From IMG/VR virus record IMGVR_UViG_2698536484_000028: a stretch of 11,543 bases of DNA. One strand, given 5' to 3'. Positions within the stretch are counted from its first letter, which is position 1. Every line of letters begins with the position of its first letter. The notes below the pieces were generated by a model that did not search any database, had not been told where the DNA came from, and saw nothing but the letters and a program-made list of their open reading frames with translations. Shown here piece after piece: positions 194 through 8,714 of this stretch. Source of the DNA: a virus (lineage: Duplodnaviria; Heunggongvirae; Uroviricota; Caudoviricetes). The position numbers and the translations under genes were made by a program.

Positions 194-955
194 TTACGAG
201 GAAGCGTTAGCTATTTGAGCTTGTGTAAATTCGAAACCAGAATTTTGTAACCGTTGCACTAGACGAGGAACTGTTTCACGTACATGGTCGTTGAAATTCA
301 GATACAAAATCCCGTTAGCATCAGAAGGCTGTTCTAGGTGCTGTTTCTGAAGGATTGCTACATTGCTGCGCCCTAAGGACGAAAGAAGCATACCCATCTC
401 GAGTACAACGTTCTGTCTTGCGCGGGGTTGGATTTCTGCTTCACCGGCGCGCTTTGAGTATCCCATATCATCAGGTGTCAAAAGAACAATCCCGAAACGG
501 GTAGCAGTTTGTCCTTGCCCAATTTCACGTTCAAGCTCTTCAATAATGGTGAGTCCAGTCCCTCCCGTATTCTGCAAAATGAAATGGTCTGGTAATCCAA
601 GTTTATGAAGGATTAGCTCAAGTTGCTCCTTTGCAGTATGGTCATGGCCGTGAACAATGAATATCTTTTTGGGGAGCTCAGATGGCTGTTCTACGGCTAG
701 TGGTGTTGCCGTGGGCGGCGTTCCTAAATGGGTCATTATTGCAGTTTCAACATTGGGACGTTCTTGAGGGTTACCTTGAAACTGAATGGTCCGGGTGGTG
801 TAAAGGTTAACAATTACGCCATTCGTTAAACGATAGCAGTCACAAGTCTCACGCTGTTCGTGGGAAAAATTGGTGAACCCACACTCCCTCAAAAAGTCAG
901 GAAAAGTTTCTCTCGAGTATGGATAGGTGATCGGCATTTCAGTTAGTTCCTGCAT
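194..955 (-). CDS. TIR-like (COG4271 / Cap12-PycTIR-effector-like) nucleotide-binding domain protein with an unrecognised ~75-aa N-terminal domain
   Basis: 253-aa ORF with AAGGA about 9 nt upstream of the ATG. Residues ~97-230 carry KIFIVHGHD..AKEQLELILHKLGL..GLTIIEELERE..FGIVLLTPDDMGY..NVVLEMGMLL, which I recognise as the hallmark pattern of the predicted nucleotide-binding TIR-like family. A Pro/Thr-rich linker (GTPPTATPLAVEQPSELP) joins it to the N-terminal domain. Family assignment is from memory, not a search. Confidence 0.75.
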   Translation of the reverse strand: MQELTEMPITYPYSRETFPDFLRECGFTNFSHEQRETCDCYRLTNGVIVNLYTTRTIQFQGNPQERPNVETAIMTHLGTPPTATPLAVEQPSELPKKIFIVHGHDHTAKEQLELILHKLGLPDHFILQNTGGTGLTIIEELEREIGQGQTATRFGIVLLTPDDMGYSKRAGEAEIQPRARQNVVLEMGMLLSSLGRSNVAILQKQHLEQPSDANGILYLNFNDHVRETVPRLVQRLQNSGFEFTQAQIANASS

Positions 956-4375: not shown

Positions 4376-5677
4376 TCAGATGAGGTCTGCGGTTAGCGTA
4401 TCGTCGGATACGTCGTCGAAATCATTTACAGGGTTGATATTGAGTGCGGGGCGTGGGTCTGACTCGGGAACGACGGTGGGTTTTCCATCAGCTCGTGTTA
4501 TCAGTGCCTCGACTTTTGACCAACGGCGCGGACTGGCCTTTTTGATAAGTTTTTCGGCTTTTGTGGGACTAATAAGTTTAAAGTCGAATACTTCTTCAGT
4601 TTTGTACCTGAACTGGTCCTTCAGAAGTGCGCGAGCTGCCTCTTCATCACTCCAGGCCCGGTTACCTTGTTTTCCTGTTACCAGTTTAAACCCCGGTACC
4701 GGATGTCCGGCATTGAGTTCATCGTGAACCCGGTCCCGTACTGCCTTTAGCCAGGATTCAATAAAGTCGGCCTGGCTATAGATCTCTGCAAGCTGCTCAA
4801 TGGTTAACAGAGGTACACGTGCGCTGGCATTGGTGATTATTTCGCTGACAGGCTTTGTCAGATCTTCAAAATCGCTGGCCGCTGTTTGTAAATGCTGCAT
4901 TTTCTGGGCAGTGCAAATAGCTTTTGCTTTACAGAAGCGGCACTGTTTTTCTCCAGGTATGAAGTTTTCCAGCGGTAGTGTCTCAATGCCTTCGCATTCA
5001 GCAATATTGAGAACAAGGATCGCACTGGTTGCGGCCTCCAGTGCCCGTTCACCGAAAGACTGAAGTTCCTGTACGGTTAACGACCATTCTGAAACGTGGT
5101 TGAGCCTTGGCTGGTGAATAAATAATCTTACAGTCTCAAAGTCATACAGCATGCTGAATTGTTCGAGAGCACCCAGAGCATACAGTTGTAGTTGCTCATT
5201 TTGTTCTGCATCAATGCGGACGCCTTTGCCATATTTCAGGTCGTGGATTTGTAATTCGTTACCAGCGATGATTATGCCGTCGGCAGTTCCGAAAGATTCT
5301 TCCACACCCGTTATATGTGAGAAATCAACACGTTGTTCAACCAATAGTTCATTATTCTGTGCAAGAGTCCAGACCGTATCAACATACCGGCCGACGGCTT
5401 CGACCATTTCATCATCCACCTGTGGGCCAGATGTATCATCAGGATTTTCGCGAAGGGGGTATGAGCCGAGAAACATAGAAACATTGCATCCGGCGTAGTG
5501 TTCCGGGTGGCTTTGCCTGTTTCGTAGAACTTTTTCAGCAAGCGCGTGCGCTGTAGTGCCCTCGATTGCAAAAGTTGTTTCTTTATCCGGTTGTGTGGCC
5601 TCCAGCGCCAGACTTCCTGGGCAGCGCATCCATCGATGCGCTGATGATGGAGAAAGTTGTGCGTGAACGTCTGGCAT
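4376..5677 (-). CDS. Cas4/RecB-like PD-(D/E)XK nuclease (DUF2800-type) with Cys cluster
   Basis: 433-aa ORF with GGAGGG SD 6 nt upstream. N-terminal [15 protein letters not shown]; GTADGIII and IHDLKYGKG nuclease-core-like motifs; QLQLYALGA (QxxxY); [10 protein letters not shown] plus the N-terminal Cys as a probable Fe-S/metal cluster. Acidic C-terminal tail [16 protein letters not shown]. Confidence 0.8.
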
Positions 5678-5679
5678 GA

Positions 5680-6582
5680 TTAACCCTCCAGTGCTTTTTC
5701 AGCCAGGGTGATTACTTCAGCGAGATTTTCATCCGTTACTTCACCAAGTTTCCTGGCTCCCTGTTTTTCCAGAATTGCAATAGCTTCTGCCCGGTAGCCC
5801 CCTTTTGCTAACTGGAGGATCAACCCTTCAGCTTGTTTGCGTAGTGCCGCGAAATCAATTGTATGGTCATCTTTGGCGTCATTATTCTGGCTGGAATTTG
5901 CTGCGTCTCTGCGTGCAAATTCTTCCTGCAGCTGAAGGTACTCAACACGGTTGATCTCGATATGGCCTTTTTTAAGCATCTCGTTCAACTTGCGTAAGGT
6001 GTGGAGTTCACTGGCTGCTGTGCCGGATACATTTTTGACGTAAAACGGCCCCGTGCGTTCTCCATCTTTGTTACTGGCCTTTTTCGGCTTAACTTCATCA
6101 CGCCCATCTGCAGGTGCATCAAGTAGCTGCTCGGCAAAAGCACGTCGCTCGCCGATGGTTGGCAGGTCGTCCCAGAACTTAAGGATGTTACGGGACAGGT
6201 CCAGGAGAGCAGGTTTAAGCAGCGCCCTGGCTCGTTTGACGCCCTGCAATGCGCTGTCGAGAGCATCAATCTGAACTACTCGTTTATCGCCTTCAGCATC
6301 ACGGTAGGCAACAGCACGTTGCAGCATATCTTCTGTGATAGGGGTGGCTACCGGGTAGAAACCAGCCAGTGCGATAACGTCGCTGAACTCCAGATCATCC
6401 AGTGTCATTGCCGCTGACATATTTTCAGTTTCAGTTGCTGTATCCCGACATTCCTGCACTCGTGAAATCGTGTCAGGATGCATAACAATACCTGATGCCA
6501 TTGTGCGGATAAGACGTTCAAGCAGCGCATTATGTTGTGCCAGAAGTTGATTATTAAGTTCTAGACTGGTTTCTAAACTCAT
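5680..6582 (-). CDS. Hypothetical protein, first large gene of the replication operon
   Basis: 300-aa ORF with GAGGA SD 7 nt upstream. Its start overlaps the upstream ORF stop (ATGA) and its stop is 2 nt from the nuclease start. No family recognised. Confidence 0.7.
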
Positions 6583-6728
6583 ACTGTGGTCCTCGCTACA
6601 AGGAGAATGAAAGTGATGATCAGACCGAGCGCAGTGGCAACGGCCAGACCGGTCATCAAATCGAAGTTTTTACGGCGATAACGGAGAACATCGCGCCCCG
6701 TCAGTCGATGGATGTGTTCAGGTTTCAT
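6579..6728 (-). CDS. Small single-pass membrane protein (about 49 aa from the preferred start)
   Basis: The ORF track gives 6579..6761, but the Met at 6728 has a good SD (AAGGA, 9-nt spacing) while 6761 has none. C-terminal hydrophobic helix LMTGLAVATALGLIITFILLVA. Translationally coupled (ATGA) to the next gene. Confidence 0.5.
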   Translation of the reverse strand: MKPEHIHRLTGRDVLRYRRKNFDLMTGLAVATALGLIITFILLVARTTV

Positions 6729-6785
6729 CGGTTGTATTCCTTTTTTCATATCGGGGAGCACGCTGTTGCGAGTGCGCTTTCAGAC

Positions 6786-6813
6786 ATAAAAAAGCCCGTC
6801 ACTTGCGGCGGGC
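6786..6813 (-). terminator. Intrinsic terminator-like hairpin on the minus strand, upstream of the replication operon
   Basis: Minus-strand RNA reads GCCCGCCGCAAGUGACGGGC (5-bp GC stem with additional inner pairs) followed by UUUUUUAU. It lies about 58 nt upstream of the 6728 start codon, on the same strand. Confidence 0.45.
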
Positions 6814-6891
6814 AAAGACTACACACAGCAATTACATGGATATCATCGAGTGCCTGCTTTTAACCACATCAGGCGAGGTGGTTCTCCTTGT

Positions 6892-6936
6892 ACCCCTACA
6901 GTGAGAAATCGTCTAATATCTCTTCACCCCTACAGT
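6892..6936 (+). repeat. Two direct copies of ACCCCTACAGT upstream of the 6953 gene
   Basis: The core CCCCTACAGT occurs at 6893-6902 and 6927-6936, 34 bp apart. The second copy sits inside an imperfect inverted repeat (TCTAATATCTCT .. GAGAGATTAGA). A TAATAT hexamer lies between them at 6914-6919. Confidence 0.35.
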
Positions 6937-6952: not shown

Positions 6953-7471
6953 ATGTCTGAAGAAAAAGGAATTCTTTCCCGGATAACTGAATCGTTATCC
7001 GGTGTGGGAGGAGCAATTAAAAGCGCGGTTGGAGCAGCAAGAGAGATTCAGAATCTGACTGTCGACTATGCAGTTAAAGAGAAGACGCACATCTTACTCG
7101 ATAAGCTAATGGATGTTCAGATGCAGCAAATGTCGCTTCAGGAGCTGCTGATTGCGGCTAAGGAGAAAATTGTTGAACTGGAAAATGAGAAAGTAAAGCA
7201 AGAGAACTGGGCCGCTGAAGCGGCGAGCTATGAACTTTACCAGCCTATGCGGGGTACTCTGGTCTATCGCAGCAAGCTTTCTGCAGATGCTGACCAATCT
7301 CCGGTTTATATTTGTCCCAATTGCTACGAGCAAAAGAGAAAATCTATATTGCAAGCGGAAGGTCTGGTTACTAAGCTAGGCCTTGGGCGAGTCGTTAATA
7401 TGGTTTGTTCGTACTGTAGGGCTTCCTATCTGTTCAACCCGAAATGCTTTAGAGGCCCGACTGCCTTCTGA
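6953..7471 (+). CDS. Hypothetical coiled-coil protein with C-terminal zinc-ribbon (CPNC..CSYC)
   Basis: 172-aa ORF with GAGAGA SD-like sequence upstream. Gly-rich N-terminal segment (SGVGGAIKSAVGAA), predicted coiled coil (LQELLIAAKEKIVELENEKVKQENW), then CxxC-25 residues-CxxC. Convergent with the cI-like gene. Confidence 0.7.
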   Translation: MSEEKGILSRITESLSGVGGAIKSAVGAAREIQNLTVDYAVKEKTHILLDKLMDVQMQQMSLQELLIAAKEKIVELENEKVKQENWAAEAASYELYQPMRGTLVYRSKLSADADQSPVYICPNCYEQKRKSILQAEGLVTKLGLGRVVNMVCSYCRASYLFNPKCFRGPTAF

Positions 7472-7574
7472 AGATGAAAATCCGGGGAAGGCAATCACGG
7501 ATTACGATCCTTACAACCAGTAATTTCTTTAAGCATGGGTACCCTTCCGGTCACCCAGAGTTAAAGGAACTAAG

Positions 7575-7601
7575 CGCCCCATCATCGGGGCGTTTCAACT
7601 T
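7575..7601 (+). terminator. Possible plus-strand terminator after the 6953..7471 gene
   Basis: CGCCCC-ATCATC-GGGGCG hairpin (7575-7592) followed by TTTCAACTT. The U-tract is weak. Confidence 0.3.
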
Positions 7602-7737
7602 GCGTGACTTATCAGTTCGTCGCGGTGTTGTCCTCTACGCTTACCGTACGCATACGGACTCGGCGCTTACCTCGATCCCATCGGGTGCTATTTCGTTTTG
7701 CCAGGAGCACTGCGGCTTACCTGTCACGCGGTTCTGT

Positions 7738-7749
7738 TTGTTAAAGAGC
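7738..7749 (-). promoter_or_regulatory. boxA element (exact GCUCUUUAACAA) in the leftward transcript
   Basis: The minus strand reads GCTCTTTAACAA, identical to the rrn boxA core 12-mer as I remember it (NusB/NusE binding site). It lies about 30 nt downstream of the predicted start of the leftward promoter. Confidence 0.45.
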
Positions 7750-7773
7750 TGGTATTAGAAAATGCATTAATTA

Positions 7774-7814
7774 TGCGGTATCGTATTTATATGCGTTATG
7801 GGATTTTGTGTCAA
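7774..7814 (-). promoter_or_regulatory. PL-like leftward sigma70 promoter overlapped by two operator-like repeats
   Basis: On the minus strand: -35 TTGACA (rc of 7809-7814), 17-bp spacer, -10 TATAAA (rc of 7786-7791). Operator-like motifs TGCGGTATCG (7774-7783) and TGCGTTATGG (7792-7801) flank the -10 hexamer. Confidence 0.55.
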
Positions 7815-7830
7815 TACGAAAATGAATTAT

Positions 7831-7868
7831 TTTGCAAATAAGAAAACCGCCCTTGTGGAGAGCGGTTT
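7831..7868 (-). terminator. Intrinsic terminator downstream of the cI-like gene
   Basis: Hairpin AAACCGC..GCGGTTT (7844-7868) with extra inner pairs; on the minus strand it is followed by UCUUAUUUGCAAAAU. Sits between the cI stop (7899) and the PL-like promoter. Confidence 0.5.
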
Positions 7869-7898: not shown

Positions 7899-8573
7899 TT
7901 AGTACATGCGTAGCGCGGATTTGGCGATCCCCGCCACGTAATGGATTTTTTCAATGTTTTCGCGTGGTACTCTGACTGGTGGATGATCTTCATTTACAGA
8001 CATTAGATGGAACAGGCCATCGCGTTCGAACAAGAAGGTTTTAACCATGACCTCACCGTCCCGGGTAACCACAAGTACTTCATCACCAGGAGTGTAGTCG
8101 TGGTTGGGTTCGACGATTACGAACTCACCCTCTTTGATTCTAGGCATCATTGAATCACCAACACATTTCAGGGCGTATGCATCTTCATCCTTTGTCGGCC
8201 AGTATATGAAACCATCACTGCTACCTACTGAATATTGGGTGTCGCTCCAAAGTCCTCCAACGCCTAGCTGAGTGTTTCCCAAAACAGGTACTTTATTAAA
8301 CCTAAGAGAAATATACGTTTTTATACCTGTCGCGTCCTCTTTCTCCATTTCTTGAAGGCTCCTTTCTGCCAGGTCTATTGGTGACACGTGGAAGTAGTCG
8401 GCGATCTGCTTTAACGTTGCGTATTTCGGATCTTTCACCTCTCCTGATACCAGCCTGTGTAGCGTTGGTTGGTTCAGCTGTAACCGACGTGCCAGCTCAG
8501 TTATCGAGCTTATCTTGGTTTTGTCCATCAGGTACTTGATGTTTTGAGAAAGGATATCGGTAGTATCAATCAT
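7899..8573 (-). CDS. cI/LexA-like phage repressor (N-terminal HTH, C-terminal S24 peptidase domain)
   Basis: 224-aa ORF. N-terminal HTH region (ITELARRLQLNQPTLHRLVSG); C-terminal S24 signature with Ser in CVGDSMMP and Lys in EVMVKTF. No canonical Ala-Gly cleavage site in the linker; candidates are L-G or V-G-G in VPVLGNTQLGVGG. Confidence 0.85.
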   Translation of the reverse strand: MIDTTDILSQNIKYLMDKTKISSITELARRLQLNQPTLHRLVSGEVKDPKYATLKQIADYFHVSPIDLAERSLQEMEKEDATGIKTYISLRFNKVPVLGNTQLGVGGLWSDTQYSVGSSDGFIYWPTKDEDAYALKCVGDSMMPRIKEGEFVIVEPNHDYTPGDEVLVVTRDGEVMVKTFLFERDGLFHLMSVNEDHPPVRVPRENIEKIHYVAGIAKSALRMY

Positions 8574-8714
8574 TTGGATTCATCCATGTTGTATACAGGG
8601 ACGGTGATTATGCGTTATCGGATATTTTAATACAGGATGATATAGAATTGCCGTATTGCTGAATAATCCGTTTTCGTATAAATTTGCGCTATAGACGAAA
8701 GTGGAGACTTAAAT
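8574..8714. promoter_or_regulatory. Divergent cI/cro-type immunity control region
   Basis: Operator-like motifs TGCGTTATCG (8611-8620) and TGCGCTATAG (8685-8694). Candidate rightward promoter -35 TTGCTG (8656-8661) / -10 TAAATT (8679-8684), with cro SD GGAG at 8703-8706. Candidate leftward -10 CATAAT (rc of 8607-8612). Palindrome TGTATACA at 8590-8597. Confidence 0.5.

Follow-up and report, generated by a model that had tools for sequence, protein, structure and literature searches.

A conserved leader RNA cassette headed by an rrn-type boxA at the early-left promoter of temperate Escherichia coli phages, a candidate cis-acting antitermination signal

Organization of the early-left region

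The subject of this study is a non-coding cassette of 175 nucleotides (nt) that begins with an exact rrn-type boxA and follows a predicted early-left (pL-type) promoter on the minus strand of a viral DNA, IMG/VR record IMGVR_UViG_2698536484_000028 (Duplodnaviria; Heunggongvirae; Uroviricota; Caudoviricetes). The whole stretch analysed, 11,543 nt in length and hereafter called the window, matched a prophage of E. coli O55:H7 DEC5E at 100% identity and four sequenced coliphages at 97.5%. The minus-strand order of features was a CI-like repressor gene, its terminator, the promoter, the boxA, a convergent cargo gene (plus strand), an RprA-like element and the replication genes (Table 1). The opposite arm has a Cro-like gene and a primase gene in the other direction, with a Q-type antiterminator further along.

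Table 1. Features of the early-left region, with positions in the window
Feature	Position	Strand	Description and basis
Leader RNA cassette	7575..7749	-	175 nt, from boxA to the terminal GC hairpin
boxA GCUCUUUAACAA	7738..7749	-	First 12 nt of the cassette; predicted single-stranded
P1	7602..7729	-	GCGUGAC (7729..7723) with GUCACGC (7608..7602); closes the folded core
P2	7621..7714	-	CGCAGUG (7714..7708) with CACCGCG (7627..7621)
P4 hairpin	7669..7686	-	ACCCGAU-GGG-AUCG(A)GGU, with a conserved bulged A
Optional P5a/P5 arm	7637..7666	-	GCGCC...CCGUA-UGCG-UACGG...AGCGU, between direct repeats GGUAAGCG (7637-7671)
P6 terminal hairpin CGCCCCGAUGAUGGGGCG	7575..7592	-	3' boundary; no U-tract; -12.3 kcal/mol, z -4.0
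Early-left (pL-type) sigma-70 promoter, predicted	7786..7814	-	TTGACA 7814..7809, 17-nt spacer 7808..7792, TATAAA 7791..7786
Operator-like repeats overlapping pL	7772..7837		18-mers 7790-7807 and 7772-7789, resembling 8609-8626 (cI-cro intergenic region); repeat search
CI-like repressor gene, helix-turn-helix (HTH)/S24	8573..7899	-	Profile matches
Intrinsic terminator of the cI-like gene	7844..7868	-	Terminator scan; hairpin -13.4 kcal/mol, z -4.7, then UUUUCUU
Cargo gene, 172 amino acids (aa), phrog_1244	6953..7471	+	Function unknown; convergent to pL; open reading frame (ORF) list, PHROG match, RefSeq annotation
RprA-like element with strong intrinsic terminator	6784..6897	-	GCCCGCC-GCAAGU-GACGGGC UUUUUU; Rfam RF00034, 47.5 bits (gathering score 70); fold
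First translated early-left gene, 49 aa, phrog_11981	6579..6728	-	Arg-rich N-terminus YRLTGRDVLRYRRKNF; hydrophobic C-terminal segment

Promoter, operators and boxA

A sequence-only reading made earlier by a model had reported TTGACA-17 bp-TATAAA on the minus strand and, about 30 nt past the start, an exact boxA of the rrn type that would be improbable by chance. Both elements were found in the sequence as described, with a -10 hexamer lacking its last T. Transcription is predicted to start near A7779 (minus strand), and the exact GCTCTTTAACAA at 7749..7738 begins at approximately +31 from this base. All 12 nt of the boxA (UGCUCUUUAACAA) were identical to the boxA of the E. coli rrnH leader, with strong conservation across cassette versions (see below), and the base preceding boxA varied. 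By our own arithmetic, 2 x 11543 / 4^12 = 0.0014 copies of this 12-mer are expected by chance on both strands of 11.5 kb. It occurred as a single exact copy in the window and was the sole copy at no more than one mismatch in the related 42.7-kb phage vB_EcoM-606R2 (ON470579), where this search revealed no second (nutR- or putR-like) boxA. The presence of a consensus boxA in a phage has precedent in the nut sites of P22 and phage 21.

The promoter was not listed by a consensus scan, because the scan requires the last T of the -10 element. Three independent lines support it: 1) the repeats overlapping it recur in the cI-cro region; 2) the 24-nt block at 7814-7837 recurs in inverted orientation at 8656-8679 on the pR side, beside a second TATAAA; and 3) a promoter-like site with a good -35 element precedes boxA in at least 10 unrelated upstream contexts, with the same spacing kept in related immunity types. 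From the sharing of the repeats between pL and the cI-cro region, we infer that they are binding sites of the S24/HTH repressor, in which case the promoter would be a repressor-controlled early-left promoter. The terminator of the cI-like gene insulates it from read-through. At the presumed pR side (8656-8690, plus strand), the unusual TATAAA is again the -10 element, and the block in front of it is homologous to the -35 region of pL; therefore, both early promoters may share this non-canonical hexamer.

Boundaries and distribution of the cassette

Mosaic breakpoints were located by megablast against 5,426 complete E. coli genomes. Some E. coli prophages shared positions 202-376 of the query alone, corresponding to 7749..7575; this stretch opens with the first base of boxA and closes with the last of the CGCCCCGAUGAUGGGGCG hairpin. 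As the breakpoints fall exactly at these two bases, the 175 nt are inherited as a unit. Scans of viral contigs gave about 100 loci (101 in the survey of flanking genes) with about 65 distinct versions of the block. The cassette-bearing prophages had E. coli, Citrobacter, Pseudocitrobacter and Trabulsiella as hosts, and one scan of species-representative genomes detected the cassette in three species, of Pseudocitrobacter, Citrobacter and Trabulsiella. The divergent forms included 1) a Yersinia class (phages YeP4-6 and four viral contigs), which is shorter (approximately 147 nt) and much divergent, with an exact boxA at its start; and 2) class 2 (loci L095, L123, L134 and L135), in which the outer parts are kept and the middle is different. 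Looser viral scans for further classes returned Yersinia-type loci only.

In all contexts, the -10 element ended 17-66 nt before boxA and belonged to a pL-type promoter. The sequence directly upstream of boxA was unrelated among versions, at least 10 promoter/operator families being represented, and an S24-type repressor gene was present approximately 0.8 kb upstream on the same strand in 88 of the 101 loci. Two unrelated backbones carried the cassette, namely the DNA-polymerase phage group of the window and lambdoid prophages with gam/bet/exo or recE arms. Judging from these junctions and contexts, the cassette is a unit that moves between immunity regions. Each element had one copy, in the left arm only, as detected with a covariance model; no second copy was found with this model in the window, the related phage or the other loci.

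The experimentally derived functional consensus of boxA is GYTCTTTAANA (PMC5725501). Among the 65 distinct enterobacterial (non-Yersinia) versions, boxA was exact in 51 and fitted this consensus in 54, as it did in all 5 Yersinia loci. Variants among the 65 were GUUCUUUAACAA (n = 3, fitting the consensus), GCUUCUUUAACAA (n = 10) and GCUUUUUAACAA (n = 1). The boxA and the folded domain behind it were never found apart.

Structure of the cassette RNA

Covariation supports a predicted fold consisting of helices P1, P2, P4 and P6 and an optional P5 arm. In an alignment of 61 sequences, 92.7% of the cells paired, compared with 23-42% for slid controls, and 11 pairs showed double-sided changes. The covariance model built from this alignment matched the Yersinia class at 29-33 bits; upon inclusion of that class, double-sided changes were seen in 27 of 37 pairs, and 93% of the cells paired, compared with 22-38%.

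In P1, C-G was replaced by A-U or U-A in 12 of the 61 sequences, and 7 of 7 pairs changed on both sides with the Yersinia class included. Compensatory variants of P2 were CGUAGCG/CGCUGCG, CGCAAAG/CUUUGAG and UUGCAU/AUGCAA, with double changes in three to five pairs. The P4 hairpin had the form GCCGCGA-AGG-AUCGC(A)GGC in class 2 and GGCCAAUCC..GGAUUG(A)GUC in the Yersinia class, while one locus (L133) showed C-G to U-A; all 7 of its pairs covaried in the alignment with the Yersinia class. Compensatory changes in the P5 arm were found in the lambdoid variant and in L024. Exactly the arm and one repeat were deleted in L054 and L089, and the arm was replaced by another hairpin in class 2 and absent from the Yersinia class. 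In P6, C-G was changed to U-A in L142. One version (L119), from which a deletion between the first and second GGUAAGC had removed the 5' strand of P2 together with P4, is probably defective. The boxA was unpaired in both the minimum free energy and the consensus folds, and the unpaired motifs GGUAA, CCUGGCAAAACGAAAUAGC and GAGGA were near-constant while the helices covaried.

Two earlier descriptions of the fold were rejected. Helices GCCG/UGGC and UAUGC/GCGUA, given by RNAalifold on the first alignment, conflicted with the compensatory changes and were replaced by P2 and P5a/P5. Three GGUAAGC repeats were considered as a defining motif but are not general: two border the optional P5 arm, and a single one is present in the Yersinia class. 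Searching the whole window with cmscan against Rfam 15 (E up to 1) matched the RprA-like element at 6784-6897 only and gave no family over 7575-7749.

Path of the pL transcript

No sense ORF of at least 25 aa was present between 7779 and the 49-aa gene, a distance of approximately 1 kb. This untranslated leader is C-rich, with C/G ratios up to 2.6, and by its composition is the kind of RNA on which Rho would act. Between the cassette and the terminator, the transcript passes antisense through the 172-aa cargo gene, and the RprA-like terminator is then the first that it meets before the replication genes. The RprA-like element was located 47-744 nt past the cassette in 64 of 75 non-lambdoid loci and in 0 of 19 lambdoid loci, and a terminator lay 3' of the cassette in most contexts. 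A scan of the interval between the RprA-like terminator and the 49-aa gene detected no promoter-like site. A need for antitermination is thus visible, as far as these predicted features indicate, in the untranslated C-rich leader, the RprA-type intrinsic terminator and the lack of a later promoter-like site.

The 49-aa gene, the function of which is unknown, was found in 72 of the 101 loci. Its annotated start is 6728, and the first in-frame ATG is at 6749. It is followed by a 300-aa gene and the genes for a DUF2800 exonuclease, a Gp2.5-like single-stranded DNA-binding protein (SSB) and a DNA polymerase.

Comparison with known boxA and antitermination systems

As in lambda nut, the pL transcript carries its boxA close to the 5' end, before the terminators and early genes, and dependence on Nus factors is presumed. 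The cassette boxA is of the full rrn type, whereas that of lambda is the shorter GCUCUUA, and in place of a boxB at the usual short distance and an N-like gene, boxA is succeeded by a large folded RNA. The helix that comes first after boxA, P1, is long-range, and the nearest local hairpin, P4, starts 51 nt past the end of boxA (cassette position 64) and has a GGG or AGGA loop. With neither boxB nor N, the cassette is not a lambda-type nut site. The sequence-only reading had likewise seen no Arg-rich N-like ORF, and none was found in the window or anywhere in the related phage (hidden Markov model (HMM) searches and a scan for arginine-rich motifs (ARMs)). It had also seen no boxB-like hairpin; this stands for a lambda-type boxB, but the conserved multi-helix RNA following boxA had been overlooked.

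The cassette shares with the rrn leader a boxA identical to that of rrnH and a position at the head of a long untranslated transcript, where boxA and Nus factors block Rho (PMC7665894). The rrn leader has the order boxB-boxA-boxC; in contrast, the cassette has no boxC UGUGUGGG shortly downstream and no boxB hairpin upstream, is borne by a phage, and must also pass an intrinsic terminator. Mimicry of rRNA or the rrn leader by the folded domain was considered and rejected, as only chance-level words of up to 10 nt matched the rrnH operon beyond boxA. In the manner of the boxA upstream of CRISPR arrays, the cassette boxA matches GYTCTTTAANA and heads a long untranslated RNA. In the 5' untranslated region of suhB, a non-rRNA boxA fitting the same consensus also stands in a 5' leader (PMC5725501). 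The suhB boxA lies near the start codon and promotes Rho termination by blocking translation, whereas no ORF follows the cassette for approximately 1 kb.

The put RNA acts on RNA polymerase through the zinc-binding domain of beta'. Like put of HK022 and HK639, the cassette is by prediction a cis-acting folded RNA placed directly after pL in temperate enterobacterial phages without N, upstream of the early-left terminators. It differs from put in 1) its size and shape, 175 nt with a multi-helix junction compared with approximately 70 nt and two stems (PMC9378689); 2) beginning with boxA, whereas put requires neither Nus factors nor other accessory proteins (PMC9378689); and 3) occurring as a single left-arm copy with no putR counterpart. 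The conserved boxA argues that the cassette would not share the Nus-independent action of put.

A direct exchange with put was visible in two lambdoid prophages (L005 and L006), which match phage HK639 both where the pL leader starts and in the first gene downstream. In these prophages, the cassette replaces a stretch that is annotated 'putL-like antiterminator RNA' in the HK639 record (position from the GenBank feature table) and of which the first approximately 56 nt are homologous to HK022 put. Blastn of the cassette found no put-bearing phage, and the covariance model had no match in HK639, the put core of which matches HK022 and relatives and not the cassette. A local likeness between GCGCGACAGUAAACC in HK639 and GCGUGACAGGUAAGCC was treated as chance, since it is not conserved in HK022. 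In L005 and L006, approximately 300 nt of non-coding DNA (5174-5477) lie between the cassette and the first gene and contain a second boxA-like sequence, GCUCUUUG, also found in HK639. In summary of its relations, the cassette occupies a place, and presumably serves a purpose, like that of put and nut; it belongs to neither family and is best described as an early processive antitermination signal joining a host-type boxA with a phage RNA domain.

Proposed mechanism

The interpretation that we favour, with confidence somewhat above even, is that the region consists of a pL-type promoter of a temperate E. coli phage and a self-contained, cis-acting, Nus-dependent RNA antitermination cassette. 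Upon departure of the CI-like repressor from the operators, RNA polymerase would start near 7779 and transcribe the rrn-type boxA approximately 30 nt later, followed by approximately 160 nt of folded RNA (P1, P2, P4, the P5 arm and P6). The single-stranded boxA would bind host NusB/NusE and nucleate a Nus complex (NusA, NusG and SuhB) on the polymerase. The role of boxB and N in lambda, or of the put RNA in HK022, may here fall to the folded domain and its invariant unpaired GGUAA, CCUGGCAAAACGAAAUAGC and GAGGA; this domain would stabilise or extend the modification of the polymerase. So modified, the polymerase could resist Rho on the untranslated C-rich leader of approximately 1 kb, including the antisense of the cargo gene, and carry on past the RprA-like intrinsic terminator to transcribe the replication operon.

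Several observations from other systems bear on these steps. The affinity of NusB is 130 nM for the rrn boxA and 2200 nM for the lambda nutL boxA (PMC2800207), and boxA alone protects long non-coding CRISPR transcripts from Rho (PMC7665894). Direct recruitment of the host Nus machinery, as proposed in the sequence-only reading, is reasonable because a plausible pL, a conserved rrn-type boxA, no N-like gene, and a terminator with approximately 1 kb of untranslated RNA are found together; that part of the proposal is plausible, but the boxA is the 5' end of a 175-nt structured cassette and not a lone element. More tentatively, and with less than even confidence, the cassette may represent a third kind of phage early antiterminator, in which RNA does the job of N: boxA would recruit the Nus factors, and the covalently linked folded domain would contact RNA polymerase or NusA, turning Rho-only antitermination into a processive state that ignores intrinsic terminators, in a portable module swapped with putL and with immunity regions.

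Several points weigh against the favoured interpretation. The -10 hexamer TATAAA is a 5/6 match without the usually conserved last T, and the boxA of the lambdoid subclass, GCUUCUUUAACAA, is one position off GYTCTTTAANA. Neither in sequence nor in structure does the cassette resemble put. Identity among most versions exceeds 90%, and the conservation of the unpaired stretches could in large part reflect recent common descent and recombination. The covariation signal is carried by three divergent classes only, and the alignment including the Yersinia class was fitted to the model and therefore favours the structure. The fold is thermodynamically ordinary, with z-scores of -0.38 for the cassette and 0.09 for the wider region; these give no support, so that the case for structure rests on covariation. 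Complexes formed on an rrn-type boxA are far more effective against Rho-dependent than against intrinsic terminators; for the RprA-like terminator to be read through, the folded domain would therefore have to contribute an activity, itself an assumed one. Finally, we infer Nus binding (from the boxA sequence and the published affinities), read-through and the role of the folded domain.

Alternative explanations

The main rival explanation, which we consider rather unlikely, is that boxA protects the transcript against Rho by itself and that the folded domain of approximately 160 nt serves another purpose: it might persist as a stable non-coding RNA made early, act as a decoy or sponge, or affect processing or stability, and the intrinsic terminator would be leaky. 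The leader of approximately 1 kb is indeed untranslated and C-rich, and boxA alone is sufficient against Rho on non-coding transcripts (PMC7665894). The stable P6 hairpin without a U-tract could shield a released RNA from 3' exonucleases, and the P5 arm is dispensable or variable. What speaks for a joint function is that boxA and the folded domain never occur apart and have exact mosaic boundaries in common, that the cassette takes the position of putL, an RNA active against both terminator types (PMC9378689), and that most loci have a strong intrinsic terminator separating the cassette from essential early genes. A sensor RNA with a regulatory role, resembling a riboswitch or titrating a protein, is considerably less probable. 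Here the junction would bind a metabolite or host protein and set transcription into the early-left operon by modulating boxA availability, pausing or termination. The closing helix around a junction and the long unpaired segments that are invariant in three classes while the helices covary would suit such a sensor, but no expression platform is apparent (P6 lacks a U-tract), no conserved competing pairing that involves boxA or P1 was found, there is no match to an Rfam riboswitch, and the spacing to the next terminator varies from 47 to 744 nt.

An unrecognised phage analogue of N that binds the cassette as a nut-like site is improbable as well, to a lesser degree than the sensor. Such a protein might be the 49-aa one, which has an Arg-rich N-terminus (YRLTGRDVLRYRRKNF) and is widespread among the loci, or might be encoded elsewhere, as N-like proteins can be encoded away from nutL, e.g. 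Gp17 of mEp021 (PMC11893012); the conserved P4 hairpin with its bulged A could be its binding site. The C-terminus of the 49-aa protein is, however, hydrophobic and membrane-like, its gene is downstream of the terminator that the product would have to suppress, and it is missing from the cassette-bearing lambdoid loci. An ARM scan of all ORFs of ON470579 returned only this membrane-like protein and spurious ORFs, and Pfam and PHROG searches of the window proteins gave no N-type match, all antiterminator matches being to Q; an N-like protein was therefore rejected. The whole related phage likewise had no N-like gene; the Q-type antiterminator is on the other arm. The antiterminator encoded outside the window, which the sequence-only reading had offered as an option, found no support, as no protein family was common to all cassette flanks (101 loci, within approximately 6 kb). 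Moreover, the cassette moves between two unrelated backbones with exact boundaries.

That the block is not an RNA element, being a protein-coding gene of the opposite strand or a chance match to boxA, is effectively excluded. ORFs of 46-94 aa on the plus strand overlap the block, and the annotation of ON470579 and of some RefSeq genomes places hypothetical proteins there. However, natural variants contain indels of 1, 2 and 26 nt, so that no reading frame is kept; the substitutions are compensatory in the helices and not periodic; and annotation by PGAP leaves the block empty in most genomes. A chance boxA is opposed by its expectation of approximately 0.0014 and by the conservation of boxA across classes. 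ORFs annotated as 'hypothetical protein' over the promoter and cassette were at 7474-7758 and 7698-7841 (plus strand) in the window, at 31989-32132 in ON470579 and at 4921-5148 in L005. The indel pattern shows those overlapping the cassette to be spurious.

Implications for phage early antitermination and annotation

Two solutions to phage early antitermination are known: N with nut RNA and Nus factors, and put RNA alone. If the favoured interpretation is true, a full-strength host boxA combined with a folded RNA and no phage protein would be a widespread hybrid solution, and the cassette would provide a compact, portable element for asking what a boxA/Nus complex needs to defeat intrinsic terminators. 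In RefSeq and GenBank records, the block currently either has no annotation or is wrongly given as small hypothetical proteins. In a large group of prophages from E. coli, Citrobacter and Yersinia, it also serves as a marker of the early-left promoter.

Other features of the region

The 172-aa cargo protein had no match in Pfam. Other cassette-bearing phages hold different genes at the cargo spot, e.g. a 68-aa ORF in L002, and the spot looks like a moron insertion site. The 3' half of the RprA-like element, AAUUGCUGUGUGUAGUCUUUGCCC, and its terminator are near-identical to the host small RNA RprA. The element, which is also present at 6440-6490 in L002, may have been copied from, or may mimic, the RprA 3' seed, being produced by termination of the pL transcript. 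A 253-aa ORF (194-955, minus strand) adjoining the DNA polymerase gene is missing from DEC5E-type relatives, which carry an ANR-family regulator there. In the record of a related phage, a 'TIR-like domain-containing protein' occupies the same place, the two being set side by side by position alone, and the 253-aa ORF is possibly a defence or counter-defence cargo.

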